Shown piece by piece: positions 680 to 5,816 of a stretch of 5,995 nucleotides of DNA. The notes under the pieces are model-generated. The model was not told the origin of the DNA and made no database searches. It saw only the letters and a program-made list of their open reading frames with translations. A program made the position numbers and the translations under genes. Position 1 is the stretch's first letter. Every line of letters starts with the position of its first letter. The stretch is from Escherichia coli. GTDB taxonomy: Bacteria > Pseudomonadota > Gammaproteobacteria > Enterobacterales > Enterobacteriaceae. The stretch lies in assembly GCF_003334385.1 (NCBI RefSeq), contig NZ_QOWN01000079.1, one strand, 5' to 3'.

Positions 680-1087
680 TTGCTGAATCTGCGGTAAATT
701 CGGCGAGAAATAACGTCAGTGCCAGAACAAATGAGCAAAAACATGCAAATGACGTTCTTGATGTAAAAAGAGAATTTTTGTTGCCAGCTTGCCGACATCA
801 ACCAGAAGAGAGCTGAAGAGAAAACAGGGTGAACTGAAGGCAACGATTTTGCTGACTGGAGCACTGAGTTTGGTAAGGTTGTCTGGACAGATAACTGGCG
901 TCCATTTTTTGTAAAACTTGAATCACTGGCAGCAGGAAGAGCTGCTTCATCTGTTACCGCATGGACGTTTTCCGTCATGCCGGGGACCCTTGTAGGTATT
1001 CTGGGTTTTGCAATTATTATGGCTGCTGTGAGTGCGCTTGTTAATGATAAGTTTATTGAGCAGAACAATAAACTTATTGGTATCTGA
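680..1087 (+). pseudogene. remnant of a colicin Ia/Ib-family pore-forming colicin gene (channel-domain fragments only; internal deletion and frame changes)
   Basis: Frame 1 (about 680-765) gives AESAVNSARNNVSARTNEQKHANDVLDV. Frame 2 (782-829) gives LADINQKRAEEKTG followed by a stop at 830-832. Frame 2 (833-1087) gives TEGNDFADWSTEFGKVVWTDNWRPFFVKLESLAAGRAASSVTAWTFSVMPGTLVGILGFAIIMAAVSALVNDKFIEQNNKLIGI*. These match, from memory, the start of the colicin Ia channel domain (NSARNN-SARTNEQKHAND) and its C-terminal hydrophobic hairpin (DW-TEFGK...WRP-FVK...hydrophobic hairpin...KLIGI/KFWGI). About 110 codons of the middle of the channel domain and the entire N-terminal translocation and receptor domains are absent. 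Confidence 0.65.
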
Positions 1088-1099
1088 CATATAATGATG

Positions 1100-1126
1100 C
1101 CCTTTCATTTTCCTGAAAGGGTTTTG
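1100..1126 (+). terminator. rho-independent terminator of the colicin transcript, overlapping the 3' end of the convergent immunity gene
   Basis: Stem CCCTTTCA (1100-1107), loop TTTTCC (1108-1113), stem TGAAAGGG (1114-1121), then TTTT (1122-1125) on the plus strand, 13 nt after the colicin stop codon at 1085-1087. Confidence 0.5.
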
Positions 1127-1452
1127 CAGAATATAAATATTAAGTAAATGGCAACTACAGGAACTGATATAACGAAACAGAATAATTCAAATATTACAGT
1201 TAAGCTTCCGCCAACTGGATTAGTAAAGAAGTCTTTTTGCCAGACTTCTTTCCCTGTAAACCTTATTACCATTTTCTGTATTATCTTCATTGAAAAAGGA
1301 AAAGTAATGGAGCTGATAATGCATCCGATGAACGCATAAAACATTCTTGAATTTTCCTGGTTATCTTTCCATCCCAGATAAAAAACTGTAAGAATAATGA
1401 AACCTGGTATCAGGCTTTTCAGAAAATACTTTACAGATATATCCGCTTTCAT
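1105..1452 (-). CDS. pore-forming-colicin immunity protein (colicin Ia/Ib immunity type), 115 aa, integral membrane
   Basis: Intact 115-aa ORF, convergent with and immediately downstream of the colicin remnant, which is the canonical arrangement for pore-forming colicins. It is strongly hydrophobic with several predicted TM segments (GFIILTVFYLGW, FIGCIISSITFPF, SLTVIFELFCFVISVPVVAIYLIFIF). An AAGGAG ribosome-binding site sits 7 nt upstream of the ATG on the minus strand (plus 1460-1465). Confidence 0.65.
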   Translation of the reverse strand: MKADISVKYFLKSLIPGFIILTVFYLGWKDNQENSRMFYAFIGCIISSITFPFSMKIIQKMVIRFTGKEVWQKDFFTNPVGGSLTVIFELFCFVISVPVVAIYLIFIFCKTLSGK

Positions 1453-1562
1453 CTGGTTTCTCCTTTATTGTCATCGTGTACTGGTGCGTGATAACATAAT
1501 GATAATAATAATCAATAACAATAAACTGTGTCACGTTTACATCATGGAACGGAGGTACTCCT

Positions 1563-1910
1563 GTGACTTTTGAGCAGAAAAAAGCCCGGGCCATTGCCCT
1601 GATGGACAGTAAAAAGATGTGGCGGAGCAATTATGCCCCTCCTCTTCTGCGTATTCTCTGGCGGCTGGGTATCCGGCTTCCGCCATTACCCTTTATGCCG
1701 TTCTGGCAGGTCACGGTGCTGACGGGGGGCTTATGGGGCATTTCCTGGGGATGTGCAATGTGGTTTATCTACTGGGGGCCGTCAGGAATGGTGGCAGGTG
1801 AGGCCATTATTATAAGTATCACGGGTGGTTTTTTGTTCGGACTGCTCATGGCCTCTTTCCACTGGTGGCGCAGGAAAGTTAACCGGCTGCCACCATGGGA
1901 TGATGTGTGA
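1563..1910 (+). CDS. small hypothetical inner-membrane protein (Trp/Gly-rich, two predicted TM helices); GTG start
   Basis: 115-aa ORF starting at GTG 1563, preceded by GGAGG (1549-1553) with a 7-nt spacer. Hydrophobic core VTVLTGGLWGISWGCAMWFIYWG and AIIISITGGFLFGLLMASF. A possible promoter is TTGTCA at 1468-1473 with TAACAT at 1492-1497. Confidence 0.5.
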   Translation: MTFEQKKARAIALMDSKKMWRSNYAPPLLRILWRLGIRLPPLPFMPFWQVTVLTGGLWGISWGCAMWFIYWGPSGMVAGEAIIISITGGFLFGLLMASFHWWRRKVNRLPPWDDV

Positions 1911-1927
1911 ATCGTGCAGGCATGTTT

Positions 1928-2518
1928 TTACGGGGTGACGCTTTCATTAACCTGTACACGAACTTTTATTCCGGCATCATGACAGGCCTGCAGCCACTGC
2001 GCCACTTCCAGCGGATCGCCCTCCCGGCGTACCACCCTGCCTTCTCTGTTCCATAACTGCAGACAGGTACTGCCGTCGAGACGTACCACAAAATCCCCAC
2101 GGCAGGCCTGATATGTCATGCCGTTCAGCTCCACCGCCAGATCAGTGGCAGAAGTGCCGTCTGCGGGCAGACCTGATGCCGGGACCAGCGGCAGTACGAC
2201 GACTTCTGCCGCACGCTGTTCTGCCCGGAGGCGGTCCTGTTCTGCCAGCAGAAGAGGCTGTGCCACGGCCCGGCCGGCGTCCGTCAGCTCCACTGTCAGC
2301 TGCAGGTTCGGAGCGCGCAGGGTACGCAGCCAGCCGGCATCCTCCAGACGACGGCAGGAGGCGCGCAGGTTTGGCCCGTAGACCGGGGCTTCCCCGCTTC
2401 GCTCCAGCACCCGTTCTATGTCCCGCGTCAGTACGGGCCCCGGCCGTTTTTCATCAAGGGCAGCCAGCACAATCAGCACTCTCCGCTGCAGTGGCGACGG
2501 TCGGCGGCTCTGGGTCAT
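1928..2518 (-). CDS. hypothetical protein, 196 aa, G+C-rich; Arg-rich N-terminus with a possible winged-helix DNA-binding region; second gene of a coupled pair
   Basis: ORF MTQSRRPSPLQRRVLIVLAALDEKRPGPVLTRDIERVLERSG...NLRASCRRLEDAGWLRTLR...; its ATG (2518-2516) overlaps the TAA of the upstream gene as TAATG, indicating translational coupling. Codon usage is consistently G+C-rich. Function unknown. Confidence 0.55.
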   Translation of the reverse strand: MTQSRRPSPLQRRVLIVLAALDEKRPGPVLTRDIERVLERSGEAPVYGPNLRASCRRLEDAGWLRTLRAPNLQLTVELTDAGRAVAQPLLLAEQDRLRAEQRAAEVVVLPLVPASGLPADGTSATDLAVELNGMTYQACRGDFVVRLDGSTCLQLWNREGRVVRREGDPLEVAQWLQACHDAGIKVRVQVNESVTP

Positions 2519-2775
2519 TACCTGTCATCCTCCGGCCAGATGAGCTTTCTGAGGCGCTGAAAGTCGGCGTCAATGAGCTCCGGTCTCTTTATGGCATTCA
2601 TTGAGGCATAGCCATTTATGGCCAGTTCATGCCAGAAGATCAGCACTGCTCCGGCTTTGGCTGACTCGCAGAGATAAATTGCGCCCTGGCTGTCCAGATT
2701 GCATTCCCGGATGCGTCGTTCCGCAAACCGGGTCAGTTGTTCATAGCTGAGTGAAAACATCCTTTCTTCATCCAT
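2518..2775 (-). CDS. hypothetical small protein (~85 aa), first gene of the coupled minus-strand pair
   Basis: The track ORF 2518-2892 has an AT-rich N-terminal extension that overlaps the palindromic repeats. The preferred start is the ATG at 2775-2773, preceded by GGAG with an 8-nt spacer, giving MDEERMFSLSYEQLTRFAERRIRECNLDSQGAIYLCESAKAGAVLIFWHELAINGYASMNAIKRPELIDADFQRLRKLIWPEDDR. Confidence 0.45.
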   Translation of the reverse strand: MDEERMFSLSYEQLTRFAERRIRECNLDSQGAIYLCESAKAGAVLIFWHELAINGYASMNAIKRPELIDADFQRLRKLIWPEDDR

Positions 2776-2851
2776 CCTGCACACTCCATCTGATAATGTC
2801 CTGTTAAGAAATAAATCATATTTTGAATCATTTATTTCTGCGCCTGTAAAC

Positions 2852-2904
2852 ATCATATCAGATATGATTATGTGATTAATGATAAATATCATATCAGATA
2901 TGAT
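2852..2904. promoter_or_regulatory. two identical perfect 17-bp palindromes (candidate tandem operators) upstream of the minus-strand operon
   Basis: ATCATATC-A-GATATGAT occurs at 2852-2868 and again at 2888-2904, 36 bp centre to centre. Each copy has 8-bp perfect inverted arms. They lie 80-130 bp upstream of the start at 2775; the AT-rich tract 2921-2933 carries TATAAT-like hexamers on both strands. Confidence 0.5.
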
Positions 2905-3222
2905 TTCATGTGTTTTTCTTGATTATAATATTAGTTGCTGGTTTTCCGCCGCGCAGATCCGGTTTCTGGTGGTCACGGATCTTCCTCTCCCCCACACAAC
3001 GCCACCTCCTATCAGCACAACATGTGGTATCTCATTCGGTTGCTTATGACACTATATGTTGTGTCATCTCCCTGACCTGTGATGCGCCGCGCAGGGGCGG
3101 AAAACAGCGATATGATTATTTTCTCAGCGTGGTACACTTCCGGAAAGTTGTGATATTCCGGAAAGTCGGATCTGACGGAAACGGCTCTCCGGTAATTTAA
3201 CGGCGTGGTTATATGGATGCTT

Positions 3223-3302
3223 GTTATCATGGTGATGATGATAACGGCATGATGTTATCAGACGGCGTGACGGTAAGGGCAGTGATGATGGATGACGTTA
3301 TC
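3223..3302. repeat. cluster of alternating GTTATC / GATAAC hexamers and GTGATGATG repeats upstream of the recombinase operon
   Basis: GTTATC at 3223-3228, GATAAC at 3240-3245, GTTATC at 3254-3259 and 3297-3302; GTGATGATG at 3232-3240 and 3282-3290. All lie 40-120 bp upstream of the ATG at 3343. Confidence 0.3.
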
Positions 3303-3342
3303 GCATGACCGTCCCTGCCCGGAAAAGAAAAAGGAGTCACCC

Positions 3343-3756
3343 ATGTTTTTTATTGAGAATGAAGGTCAGGCTGTCGCCGGAACGGATTACTGGCAGTCTG
3401 TACAGGCGCAGGCCGGATATGTCTACCTCAGCTGGAATGCCGGCGCAGCCAGGCTGCTTGTCCCGGATGCGGCAAAACATTTACTCAGGGAGATGCGGGG
3501 GGCTGAGTACGTCATCATCAGTAAGGGAACGCTGAATGGCCGCGATGCGCTGGAACTGGTATTTGAAGACGGCAGCGATGCGCCGTTTGTGATCCACATG
3601 CTGAGTGAGCAGTGCGATCGCCTGCTCCCCGAAAACAACCAGGGAGGGGGTTTTGTTGTCACCGTCTGGACGCGTGGCGGTAACCAGCGCCGTTATCCGG
3701 GAAAGTACCGTGTTGTGGAAAACCTGCCCGACGTTTCCCCGTGGAGTGAACACTGA
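3343..3756 (+). CDS. hypothetical protein (137 aa), translationally coupled to the downstream tyrosine recombinase
   Basis: ATG 3343 is preceded by AAGGAG (3331-3336) with a 6-nt spacer. Its stop TGA (3754-3756) is followed one nucleotide later by the recombinase ATG (TGAtATG). Sequence MFFIENEGQAVAGTDYWQSVQ...; no motif I recognise. Confidence 0.55.
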   Translation: MFFIENEGQAVAGTDYWQSVQAQAGYVYLSWNAGAARLLVPDAAKHLLREMRGAEYVIISKGTLNGRDALELVFEDGSDAPFVIHMLSEQCDRLLPENNQGGGFVVTVWTRGGNQRRYPGKYRVVENLPDVSPWSEH

Positions 3757-3757
3757 T

Positions 3758-4537
3758 ATGCAGCACCTGCCGGCACCGATCCACCATGCCCGGGATGCTG
3801 CTCAGCTTCCTGTTGCCATCGATTATCCGGCAGCGCTGGCACTCCGCCAGATGTCGATGGTTCATGATGAACTGCCAAAATACCTGCTGGCCCCTGAAGT
3901 GAGCGCCCTGCTCCATTACGTGCCGGATCTGCGCCGCAAAATGCTGCTGGCCACACTGTGGAACACCGGTGCGCGCATTAATGAAGCACTGGCGCTGACG
4001 CGGGGGGATTTTTCGCTCACGCCTCCGTATCCGTTTGTGCAGCTGGCCACTCTGAAGCAGCGGACAGAAAAAGCCGCCAGGACGGCAGGAAGGATGCCCG
4101 CCGGTCAGCAGACTCACCGTCTGGTTCCGCTCTCCGACGCCTGGTACGTCAGCCAGCTGCAGACGATGGTGGCCACACTGAAAATCCCCATGGAACGGCG
4201 TAATAAACGAACAGGCAGGACAGAGAAAGCGCGGATCTGGGAAGTGACGGACAGAACGGTCAGGACCTGGATTGGGGAGGCGGTTGCCGCCGCTGCCGCT
4301 GATGGTGTGACGTTCTCTGTCCCGGTCACGCCACATACGTTCCGCCATTCCTATGCGATGCATATGCTGTATGCCGGTATACCGCTGAAGGTCCTGCAGA
4401 GTCTGATGGGGCATAAGTCCATCAGCTCAACGGAGGTCTACACGAAGGTGTTTGCGCTGGATGTGGCTGCACGGCACCGGGTGCAGTTTTCGATGCCTGA
4501 GTCCGATGCGGTGTCTATGCTCAAAAGAATTCCATAA
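3758..4537 (+). CDS. tyrosine site-specific recombinase (plasmid multimer-resolution type, ResD/XerD-like), 259 aa
   Basis: Contains the tyrosine-recombinase signature residues: box I Arg (LWNTGARINEALAL), HTFRHSYA (H-x-x-R), and LMGHKSISSTEVYTKV with the catalytic Tyr. The track ORF 3605-4537 is trimmed to the ATG at 3758, which abuts the upstream stop. From memory it resembles the F-plasmid ResD protein. Confidence 0.85.
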   Translation: MQHLPAPIHHARDAAQLPVAIDYPAALALRQMSMVHDELPKYLLAPEVSALLHYVPDLRRKMLLATLWNTGARINEALALTRGDFSLTPPYPFVQLATLKQRTEKAARTAGRMPAGQQTHRLVPLSDAWYVSQLQTMVATLKIPMERRNKRTGRTEKARIWEVTDRTVRTWIGEAVAAAAADGVTFSVPVTPHTFRHSYAMHMLYAGIPLKVLQSLMGHKSISSTEVYTKVFALDVAARHRVQFSMPESDAVSMLKRIP

Positions 4538-4560
4538 GCTCTGACTTTTTTAAATCCCTT

Positions 4561-4712
4561 TCGGATATCTCATGGATATATTATCGGTATTTCATATTCT
4601 GTTGACATGCAGGACCGGTATAGAGTAAAAGAACATCTATTGAGTACCTCTTGGATATCCGAAAGGTGTCTTATGGGGTCTTTATGGGTATTACATGTGG
4701 ATTCTGGAGATA
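4561..4712. repeat. centromere/operator-like iteron cluster with promoter upstream of parA
   Basis: Repeated [C/T]GG[A/G]TAT motifs: cGGATATc 4562-4569, tGGATATa 4573-4580, cGGTATt 4585-4591, tGGATATCc 4652-4660 (palindromic GGATATCC), tGGGGTCt 4674-4681, tGGGTATt 4685-4692, tGGATTCt 4698-4705. A consensus -35 TTGACA sits at 4602-4607 but no clear -10 was found. Confidence 0.45.
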
Positions 4713-4716
4713 CACT

Positions 4717-5361
4717 ATGCCTGTTATTGCTAATACGCATCCCAAAGGTGGTGTGGGGAAGACAACTTCATCCGTAAACATTGTTGGTGAAATGAAGTCT
4801 GATACAGTTGATCTGGATACTCATACCGGGCTTTCTATCATTCTGGGGCTGAGACCTGAAGGAAAAGAAATTTCCGTGAAAGTACCCAAAACAGTGGATG
4901 AGTTAATCGAAATTATGACTCCCTACAAGAACAGCGATAAGACGTTACTTATTGACTGTGGGGGATTTGACTCAGATCTTACCCGTACTGCGATTGCCTT
5001 TGCAGACTGCGTTATTGTCCCTTCAAAAGACTCCCTGACTGAACGTATTGGTTTGATGCATTTTGATGGAGTACTGGACGAAATCAGCTCTATCATGGGG
5101 ACCGATATAACTGCTCACCTGTATCTCTGTAAAGTTAATCCTAACAAGAAGAAATTCCCTAAGCTTGATGCAATCCTGCCATCGTTCAAACATCTGAAGC
5201 TGATGAAGAGCCGCATTTCTGCTCGTGCAGAATTTGAGGATGTCATTGAGACTGGGATGGGAATCACTGAGTCTGTTCATGGGCGCTATTCGGCAGGAGG
5301 TAAGGAAGTTATTGCCCTGATCGAAGAAATCAATCATCTGATTGAAAATAACAAACAGTAA
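4717..5361 (+). CDS. parA: small ParA-family partition ATPase (type Ib, deviant Walker A), 214 aa
   Basis: N-terminal MPVIANTHPKGGVGKTT carries the deviant Walker A motif KGGxGKT. A hydrophobic strand ending in Asp (TLLIDCGG) resembles the Walker B region. The size is typical of small ParA/ParF-type proteins. GGAGA lies 6 nt upstream of ATG 4717. The track ORF starting at 4651 (TTG) is an N-terminal over-extension. Confidence 0.8.
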   Translation: MPVIANTHPKGGVGKTTSSVNIVGEMKSDTVDLDTHTGLSIILGLRPEGKEISVKVPKTVDELIEIMTPYKNSDKTLLIDCGGFDSDLTRTAIAFADCVIVPSKDSLTERIGLMHFDGVLDEISSIMGTDITAHLYLCKVNPNKKKFPKLDAILPSFKHLKLMKSRISARAEFEDVIETGMGITESVHGRYSAGGKEVIALIEEINHLIENNKQ

Positions 5362-5362
5362 G

Positions 5363-5447
5363 GTGTGTCTATTGGGTATCCATATAGTATCCTTTGGGCT
5401 TTTAATGGATATCTTTTAAGTATCTAACAAACATCCTGGGTTATCTC
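5363..5447. repeat. iteron cluster between parA and the adaptor gene
   Basis: tGGGTATCc 5373-5381, tAGTATCc 5385-5392, tGGATATCt 5406-5414, aAGTATCt 5418-5425, GGGTTATCTCATG 5438-5450. GTGTGTCT at 5363-5370 recurs at 5785-5792, and TATCTCATG at 5442-5450 recurs at 4566-4574. Confidence 0.4.
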
Positions 5448-5756
5448 ATGAGCAAAGCGAAATTTAGTGCACAGGCTGAAAAACTGAAAAACCTGGTGGA
5501 TTCTGCCAGATTACAAACTTCTTCTTCTGCCGTAACAGCAACAGCCCCGTCTCAGCCAAATGAAGGTGCAGAGGTAGTTTCAGGTCGTCCCGTGGCTGCC
5601 AGGACGAAGGCTAAGAATCTTAAGGCCATACCGCTGTCGTATTTTGAAGCTCATGCGGAACTTAAAGCGACCAGTAAAACATCTCTGGATTTTAGCTCAT
5701 ATATTATTGAGGCTATAAGAGAGAAGCTTGAACGTGATGGTGCAATAGGTCAATAA
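5448..5756 (+). CDS. small partition adaptor / centromere-binding protein (ParG/ParB-like, probable ribbon-helix-helix C-terminus), 102 aa
   Basis: Sits immediately downstream of the small ParA in the same orientation. It has a low-complexity Ser/Thr/Ala-rich N-terminal tail and a C-terminal segment (KAIPLSYFEAHAELKATSKTSLDFSSYIIEAIREKLER) consistent with a strand-helix-helix DNA-binding fold. Flanked by the iteron clusters. Confidence 0.55.
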   Translation: MSKAKFSAQAEKLKNLVDSARLQTSSSAVTATAPSQPNEGAEVVSGRPVAARTKAKNLKAIPLSYFEAHAELKATSKTSLDFSSYIIEAIREKLERDGAIGQ

Positions 5757-5759
5757 ACT

Positions 5760-5816
5760 ATCGGATACCTTAAGGGTATCTGATGTGTGTCTTTTAAATG
5801 CGTTATGGGGATTCTT
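5760..5816. repeat. iteron cluster downstream of the adaptor gene
   Basis: cGGATACCt 5762-5770, aGGGTATCt 5773-5781, GTGTGTCT 5785-5792, tatGGGGATTCt 5804-5815. These are the same motif families as the clusters at 4561-4712 and 5363-5447. Confidence 0.4.

Follow-up and report, generated by a model that had tools for sequence, protein, structure and literature searches.

A very probable rfsF/ResD-type crossover site in the repeat-dense intergenic region of an IncI-type plasmid segment from Escherichia coli

Where does the tyrosine recombinase of an IncI-type plasmid act, when the DNA upstream of its operon is crowded with several unrelated kinds of repeat? The question is raised by a 5,995-bp stretch of Escherichia coli DNA (contig NZ_QOWN01000079.1; the whole of it is called the window here), which its open reading frame (ORF) layout and database matches identify as a segment of an IncI-type plasmid (IncI1 / I-gamma / K). 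The window carries a resD gene at the end of a rightward operon, and an intergenic region lies upstream of that operon. The initial annotation had proposed that one of the repeat arrays listed there, namely a 10-bp inverted pair with 9-bp direct copies beside it, two palindromic direct repeats and four GTTATC/GATAAC hexamers, was the crossover or accessory site, and added that none matched a core it could recall. We find that the recombinase site does lie in this intergenic region and that it matches rfsF, the site of the F-plasmid ResD system, through an AGATCCG/CGGATCT repeat which that listing had missed; none of the listed arrays is the crossover. Taken as a whole, the evidence makes it highly probable that the region is the counterpart, on an IncI plasmid, of the rfsF/ResD multimer-resolution locus of F, with its crossover site at 2955-2982. 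The elements on which this reading turns are as follows.

570 bp between the leftward operon and ORF137: intergenic region with the finding
2955-2982, no strand assigned: rfsF-type crossover core (very probable), a 28-bp inverted repeat
2955-2964: left arm of the core, AGATCCGGTT
2965-2972: 8-bp spacer of the core, TCTGGTGG
2973-2982: right arm of the core, TCACGGATCT
3343-3756, + strand: ORF137, first gene of the ORF137-resD operon
3758-4537, + strand: resD, tyrosine recombinase acting at rfsF, last gene of the operon

Xu et al. mapped plasmid fusions to a 28-bp element composed of two 10-bp inverted repeats and an 8-bp spacer, and the published rfsF search pattern is AGATCCGNAANNNNNNNNTTNCGGATCT, that is AGATCCGNAA-N8-TTNCGGATCT (PMC8299605). 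The core of the window has 7-bp perfect arms, AGATCCG (2955-2961) and CGGATCT (2976-2982), separated by 14 bp, and is identical to this pattern in the outer 7 bp of both arms and in the 8-bp spacing. Even with two mismatches allowed, AGATCCG-N14-CGGATCT matches once in the window, and shuffled sequences give 0.02 matches each on average. Moreover, the core aligns column for column with the sites of F, R64, ColIb-P9, pETN48, IncR and pSLT, and occupies the same position. The recombinase encoded at 3758-4537 is 94% identical to F-plasmid ResD (the D protein) across 251 amino acids and 90% identical to the integrase of the IncF plasmid pETN48, gives partial XerD/XerC-type NCBIfam matches (E 1e-23), and shows in its translation the catalytic motifs GARINE, HTFRHS, GHKS and EVYTKV (R, H-x-x-R, H, Y), so that a tyrosine recombinase of the ResD lineage is found near the site, as in the rfsF/ResD system. 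By analogy, the two inverted ResD-binding arms (AGATCCG... and ...CGGATCT) around the 8-bp spacer would form the crossover site; ResD, encoded 0.8 kb downstream, would bind the arms and exchange strands at the spacer boundaries, resolving plasmid dimers and occasionally fusing plasmids or swapping modules between rfsF carriers.

The closest model is F itself, whose rfsF, AGATCCGAAA-ACCCCAAG-TTACGGATCT, lies at NC_002483 45922-45949. This position coincides with the start of the RepFIA region in the pEC958 paper, which describes that region as "two rfsF sites followed by oriV-1, ccdAB and resD". Window and F share the 28-bp architecture, identical outer heptamers and a position upstream of an operon ending in resD; they differ in the inner bases and spacer (AAA-ACCCCAAG-TTA in F, GTT-TCTGGTGG-TCA in the window), in the upstream gene of the operon (ccdAB in F, ORF137 in the window) and in the left flank, which is pif in F and the 84-aa/196-aa operon in the window. 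Among IncI1 plasmids the literature places rfsF just upstream of the same gene set (PMC8004404), and R64 and ColIb-P9 (NC_005014 was used in place of AP005147) are 98.7% identical to the window from 2972 rightwards, including ORF137, resD and parA, but carry an F-type core, AGATCCGAAA-ACCCCARG-TTACGGATCT. The layout also recurs in pSLT, whose crs/rsdB system is the Salmonella counterpart: a core AGATCCGAAA-AAAGGTAG-TCCCGGATCT at 19563-19590 is followed by a 75% identical block with GTGGTACACTTCCGGAAAGT and AAAATCGGATC and then by a polycistronic operon ending in rsdB, although there the operon consists of ccdAB, two ORFs and rsdB. Krause and Guiney reportedly described in 1991 a crs of the pSDL2/pSLT type with eight imperfect 17-bp direct repeats upstream of an oriV1-like segment; the 17-bp crs array has no counterpart in the window, and Tandem Repeats Finder (TRF) found none in pSLT. 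The alignment with rfsF, cer and crs-type sites that the initial annotation had suggested as a check thus yields a match to rfsF and the same layout in crs-type pSLT, while cer stays at the shuffled background. A wider comparison, made in PMC5587640, is with loxP/Cre and FRT/Flp, which likewise have inverted recombinase-binding arms around a 6-8-bp spacer of strand exchange. However, these sites have no sequence similarity to the core (the best loxP match in the region, 18/34 positions, is inside the shuffled range of 18-20), and in contrast to them the ResD arms are reliably conserved over 7 bp only and the site is embedded in a long conserved flank.

A second line of evidence comes from natural breakpoints. 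A megablast search of the region against PLSDB returned about 3,600 matching plasmids (3,589), and breakpoints were read in a spread sample of 60. Left-hand similarity is lost at window 2954-2979, within the core, in 44/60 of the sampled plasmids, and in one of them right-hand similarity is lost at 2968. Most of the matching PLSDB plasmids share just window ~2955/2970-3197, and the whole window arrangement is common to about 560-630 plasmids. The same switch can be followed to the base in ColIb-P9, which has two sites, a degenerate site A, AGATCCGGTT-TCCGGCGG-TTCCGGAGAT (12051-12078), and a canonical site B at 15610. Window 887-2979 aligns with ColIb-P9 9974-12075 and window 2971-5918 with 15626-18575, the 3.5-kb segment between the sites at 12051 and 15610 being absent from the window; the left arm and spacer of the window correspond to the upstream, degenerate site, so that the window follows site A through the spacer and site B from the right arm on, with the switch at the spacer/right-arm boundary. 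Among the other loci compared (numbered with L), L007 is an exact hybrid of the left half of site A and the right arm of site B, and L010 joins a window-type left flank to an F-like ccdAB-resD right side. When the left-arm class (AAA or RTT) is set against the right-flank allele (CCCCCACACAAC or CCCTCCGCACAG), all four combinations are found, and recombination has therefore occurred within the ~25 bp between left arm and right flank. Furthermore, the left arm stays linked to most of the spacer, in two allele classes (AAA-A... and RTT-TC...), and the right arm follows the right flank, which suggests that exchange takes place mostly at the right spacer boundary. The identity of the site, its homology, its linkage to resD and the natural breakpoints in the core are directly supported by these comparisons, and a core at 2955-2982 accounts for the mosaic structure around the window. 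The DNA just beside the core also has a composite history: 2983-3200 is 91% identical to R64 and ColIb-P9, against 98.7% for the rest of 2972-5918, and 97.7% identical to the IncF plasmid pETN48. Being closer to pETN48 than to R64/ColIb-P9, the block beside rfsF is therefore itself mosaic.

This block and the islands within it form the right-hand surroundings of the core.

2983-3197, + strand: conserved block of ~215 bp following the core, homologue of the F oriV-1 stretch
3096-3105, + strand: conserved island GGCGGAAAAC, right arm of the previously listed inverted pair
3130-3148, + strand: most conserved island, TGGTACACTTCCGGAAAGT, holding the first TTCCGGAAAGT copy
3164-3173, + strand: distal core-type half-site AGTCGGATCT, oriented like the right arm

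The block, which some 3,600 PLSDB plasmids have, is 82% identical to F (NC_002483, about 45939-46165), 75% to pSLT and 78% to IncR, and window 2972-3197 is 82% identical to the F region that begins at the rfsF site (NC_002483 nt 45922); the F counterpart of the block sits between pifC and ccdA. In every fetched locus (IncI, IncF, IncR) it carries no annotation and precedes an operon whose last gene is a resD-type "site-specific integrase", and the order of core and then block upstream of a resD operon is repeated in 17 other loci. Within it CGGAAAAC is invariant in 15/15 aligned plasmids, F and IncR included, and so is TACACTTCCG, which is also present in pSLT. By sequence inspection only, TGgTACACT (3130-3138) looks like a candidate extended -10 element; a scan for consensus promoters and terminators found none in the region, and a looser scan gave weak promoter candidates only. 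The distal half-site, abutted by the second TTCCGGAAAGT copy (3156-3166), has the form (A/G)TCGGATC(T), of which TCGGATC is invariant in 15/15 sequences. Its distance downstream from the core start is 191-192 bp in the 11 loci picked up by a 3-mismatch scan (a scan that misses F, with CGGATCC, and pSLT, with CGGATCA, where the window has CGGATCT), and it forms with the left arm an 8-bp perfect inverted repeat, CAGATCCG / CGGATCTG. The half-site may therefore be one more place where ResD binds, in an accessory or repressor role. For the D protein of F, repression of transcription has been reported. More generally, the block is probably accessory or regulatory DNA of the ResD system, and its islands and third CGGATCT half-site (3167-3173) would most likely be accessory or regulatory sites for ResD or a host factor; the right-hand GGCGGAAAAC and the first TTCCGGAAAGT could be such elements.

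An origin of replication of the oriV1 type might instead account for the block: the F stretch known as oriV-1 has 82% identity to it and likewise directly follows rfsF. However, the block accompanies resD-type operons in IncI, IncR and IncFIB/FII plasmids (pSLT, for example) that have no RepFIA replicon, and it is therefore linked to resD rather than to the replicon; since it also contains an invariant ResD-type half-site, we regard a replication origin as unlikely. A structured RNA was considered for the block and rejected: Rfam had no match anywhere in the window and none in the block at E<=1, and RNAalifold on the 15-sequence block alignment gave a covariation term of -0.19 kcal/mol with 1 compensatory pair of 52. 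A further repeat, CGGAAA/TTTCCG, occurs in 6 copies in ~380 bp (2943-3325), where ~0.2 are expected. In the 15-sequence alignment it is invariant only at 3098 and 3141, and only the copy at 3141 is kept in pSLT; its multiplicity is lineage-specific.

Several observations weigh against assigning the core and its surroundings to the rfsF/ResD system. At its inner arm positions the core does not follow the published pattern, with GTT in place of NAA on the left and TCA in place of TTN on the right. Spacers differ between apparently recombined sites, and such differences normally hinder tyrosine recombinases. The clustering of breakpoints could come in part from module boundaries kept by selection or from homologous exchange in the block. 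Finally, because the consensus scans found no promoter, the regulatory roles of the block and of the GTTATC array are ones that we infer. The first of these points could be taken to mean that 2955-2982 is an inactive hybrid relic, with arms too degenerate for ResD, in a region that is only a divergent promoter/operator: the inner arm positions are asymmetric (GTT versus TGA on the complementary strand) and outside the published pattern, and the right arm TCACGGATCT is a minority allele, seen among the loci compared only in the window and L010. On the other hand, the outer 7 bp of both arms are perfect, and many plasmids whose resD is intact show variation in the inner 3 bp (left AAA, GTT or ATT; right TTA, TTC, TCA or TCC), with the RTT-type left arm seen beside at least five unrelated left flanks. 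In the window resD is itself intact and conserved, and the roughly 560-630 plasmids noted above carry the whole arrangement. A dead relic is thus quite improbable, and the core allele of the window is predicted to be active. That inner-arm variation is common where resD is intact suggests in turn that the published pattern is too narrow, and as a definition of rfsF it is probably too strict.

The listed repeats are real. All of them were confirmed: GTTTTCCGCC at 2941-2950 and GGCGGAAAAC at 3096-3105 form a 10-bp perfect inverted repeat; (C)GCCGCGCAG occurs as direct copies at 2947-2956 and 3085-3094, the left one overlapping the first two bases of the core; TTCCGGAAAGT is found at 3138-3148 and 3156-3166; and GTTATC/GATAAC starts at 3223, 3240, 3254 and 3297, the first two forming an 8-bp perfect inverted repeat, GTTATCAT-N7-ATGATAAC. 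Against 500 dinucleotide shuffles of 2941-3342 the region is truly repeat-dense, as six or more 9-mer direct pairs were reached in none of them (0/500), an 11-bp direct repeat in 10/500 and one hexamer four times within 80 bp in 5/500. A 10-bp perfect inverted repeat was reached in 36/500, and the inverted pair is therefore unremarkable alone. As crossover sites, however, these arrays fail on conservation, since most of them are poorly conserved in relatives while ResD stays 90-94% identical. The left GTTTTCCGCC and GCCGCGCAG copies drift in relatives with the same flank (GTTTCCCGTC, GTTCTCTGCC, GCCGTGCAG and GCCGCACAG) and are absent from F, R64 and pETN48. Neither the 10-bp inverted pair nor the 9-bp direct pair was retained as a pair of functional partners, their left copies drifting and their right copies being invariant; for the 10-bp pair the drift of the left copy combines with the occurrence of such repeats in 7% of shuffles. 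The second TTCCGGAAAGT copy is likewise lineage-specific, being missing in F, pSLT, L009-L011 and L015.

The best candidate among the arrays lies in the leader of ORF137.

3198-3342, + strand: IncI-specific ORF137 leader, 145 bp, with four GTTATC/GATAAC hexamers and the ribosome-binding site AAGGAG

If one of the listed arrays were the true crossover, it would be GTTATCAT-N7-ATGATAAC (3223-3245), with the other two hexamers as accessory arms. Its 8-bp perfect inverted repeat and 7-bp spacer have the arm-spacer-arm shape of a tyrosine-recombinase core, four hexamers within 80 bp are rare in shuffles, as said, and the array is directly upstream of the operon. Yet the GTTATC array is absent from F, pETN48, L010, L014 and L015, which keep a 90-94% identical ResD and the AGATCCG/CGGATCT core, no homology breakpoints cluster at it beyond the plain end of the conserved block, and published experimental fusion junctions lie at the 28-bp rfsF site (PMC8299605), so that this alternative is very improbable. 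The hexamers, with a consensus of about SATGNYGTTATCA, belong to a leader that is nearly invariant across 9 IncI-type loci (one hexamer substitution only) and gives way to different sequence in loci with ccdAB or other genes ahead of resD. We presume that 3198-3342 is the promoter/operator region of the ORF137-resD operon, in which the GTTATC array would be a candidate operator.

A site for the host XerCD recombinases can be practically dismissed: many enterobacterial plasmids resolve dimers in that way and cer, psi and dif share with rfsF the biological role of multimer resolution, but they differ from it in using host recombinases and non-palindromic XerC/XerD arms, nothing specific to them was found here, the best intergenic matches to dif, cer and psi (15-17 of 28-30 positions) are no better than those in shuffled sequence (15-19), and the region does not contain the Xer site architecture (11-bp XerC arm, 6-8-bp centre, 11-bp XerD arm, GGTGCG...TTATGTTAAAT).

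With the core assigned to the rfsF/ResD system, the DNA to its left divides into two parts.

2930-2954, + strand: pyrimidine-rich left flank of the core, containing GTTTTCCGCC and the left GCCGCGCAG
2773-2929, - strand: control region of the leftward operon, with an array of ATCATAT half-sites

Twelve flanks were examined (window, L001, L003, L005, L008, L009, L011, L012, L014 and L016-L018), most of them unrelated in sequence, and in these pyrimidines make up 64-84% of the top strand over the 25 bp next to the core on its left, the window having a mean of 50% and a 95th percentile of 68%. This richness mirrors the TCTTCCTCTCCC tract on the right, and the shared pyrimidine-rich flanks imply that the functional site may extend past 28 bp. 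To the left of 2955, all DNA is part of an exchangeable module that has operators of its own. The ATCATAT array includes two 17-bp palindromes, ATCATATCAGATATGAT (2852-2868 and 2888-2904), and travels with the leftward operon in L002, L006-L008, L010 and ColIb-P9, regardless of the DNA right of the core. It is probably the operator array of the 84-aa/196-aa operon, and 2773-2929 is a separate module, outside the ResD system.

In four plasmids the main site is preceded on its left by a second, directly oriented rfsF-like site, perfect in its left arm but degenerate in its right: ColIb-P9 (L005 12051-12078), pETN48 (L001 3189-3216), L002 (1298-1325) and L027 (1700-1727). The distance from secondary to main site is 1.8-3.6 kb in L001, L002 and L005; for L027 only the left site was fetched. 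Secondary and main site bracket cargo of toxin-antitoxin, defence-like or other kinds, which includes DUF4238 and other genes in ColIb-P9, RES-Xre in pETN48, a hydrolase together with the leftward operon in L002, and S-4TM/nucleotidyltransferase in L027. For pETN48, two site matches were reached in 0/200 shuffles. These secondary sites look like successive ResD-mediated insertions at rfsF that were locked by the decay of one arm, and we tentatively raise the possibility, which we hold to be less than probable, that beyond dimer resolution rfsF is a one-sided site for docking cargo. The linkage of left arm and spacer, and of right arm and right flank, described above fits such a reading. If it holds, directionality would be set by accessory elements, namely the pyrimidine-rich flanks and the half-site at a distance of 191-192 bp.

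The remaining genes of the window lie on either side of this locus.

643-1100 and 1105-1452: colicin Ia/Ib remnant and its immunity gene, the leftmost genes of the window
Between the colicin immunity gene and the leftward operon: DUF6404-type gene
2772 down to 1928, - strand: leftward 84-aa/196-aa operon
4717-5361: small ParA gene
5448-5756: gene for a ParG-like protein

The colicin Ia/Ib gene is represented by a C-terminal remnant only, adjoined by an intact immunity gene, and the similarity of the remnant region to ColIb-P9 is patchy, so that the plasmid of the window has lost the colicin and kept the immunity. The 84-aa and 196-aa proteins had no informative family match. ORF137 had no match in Pfam, NCBIfam or PHROG and no sequence relative in the PDB; it has 944 cluster representatives, and a structure model based on a multiple sequence alignment is confident, yet without a structural neighbour in the PDB. 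Distant homologues occur in varied arrays of small genes and are not consistently beside recombinases. A role for ORF137 as the DNA-binding regulator that would explain the GTTATC array was considered, but neither family, nor PDB-sequence, nor structural-neighbour support was found for it. Farther to the right, parA and the ParG-like gene are flanked by GGATATC, GGTATC and AGTATC repeats and palindromes (4557-4696, 5370-5424 and 5760-5784), including a 13-bp perfect inverted pair, CCTTTCGGATATC / GATATCCGAAAGG, with arms 84 bp apart. They probably serve this ParA system as partition or operator sites.

The rfsF/ResD system is already known, and this region is an ordinary site of plasmid dimer resolution and module exchange, a feature already explained, so that our finding leaves the overall picture of the system unchanged. 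Through this system large low-copy plasmids remain monomers; plasmid fusions by it have also been demonstrated, among them those of Klebsiella virulence plasmids with IncF helpers (PMC8299605), and rfsF is the point at which the Delta/Col gene sets are swapped in IncI1 plasmids (PMC8004404). Since the published pattern misses the common RTT-type left-arm alleles, surveys that use it would undercount the plasmids capable of fusion.
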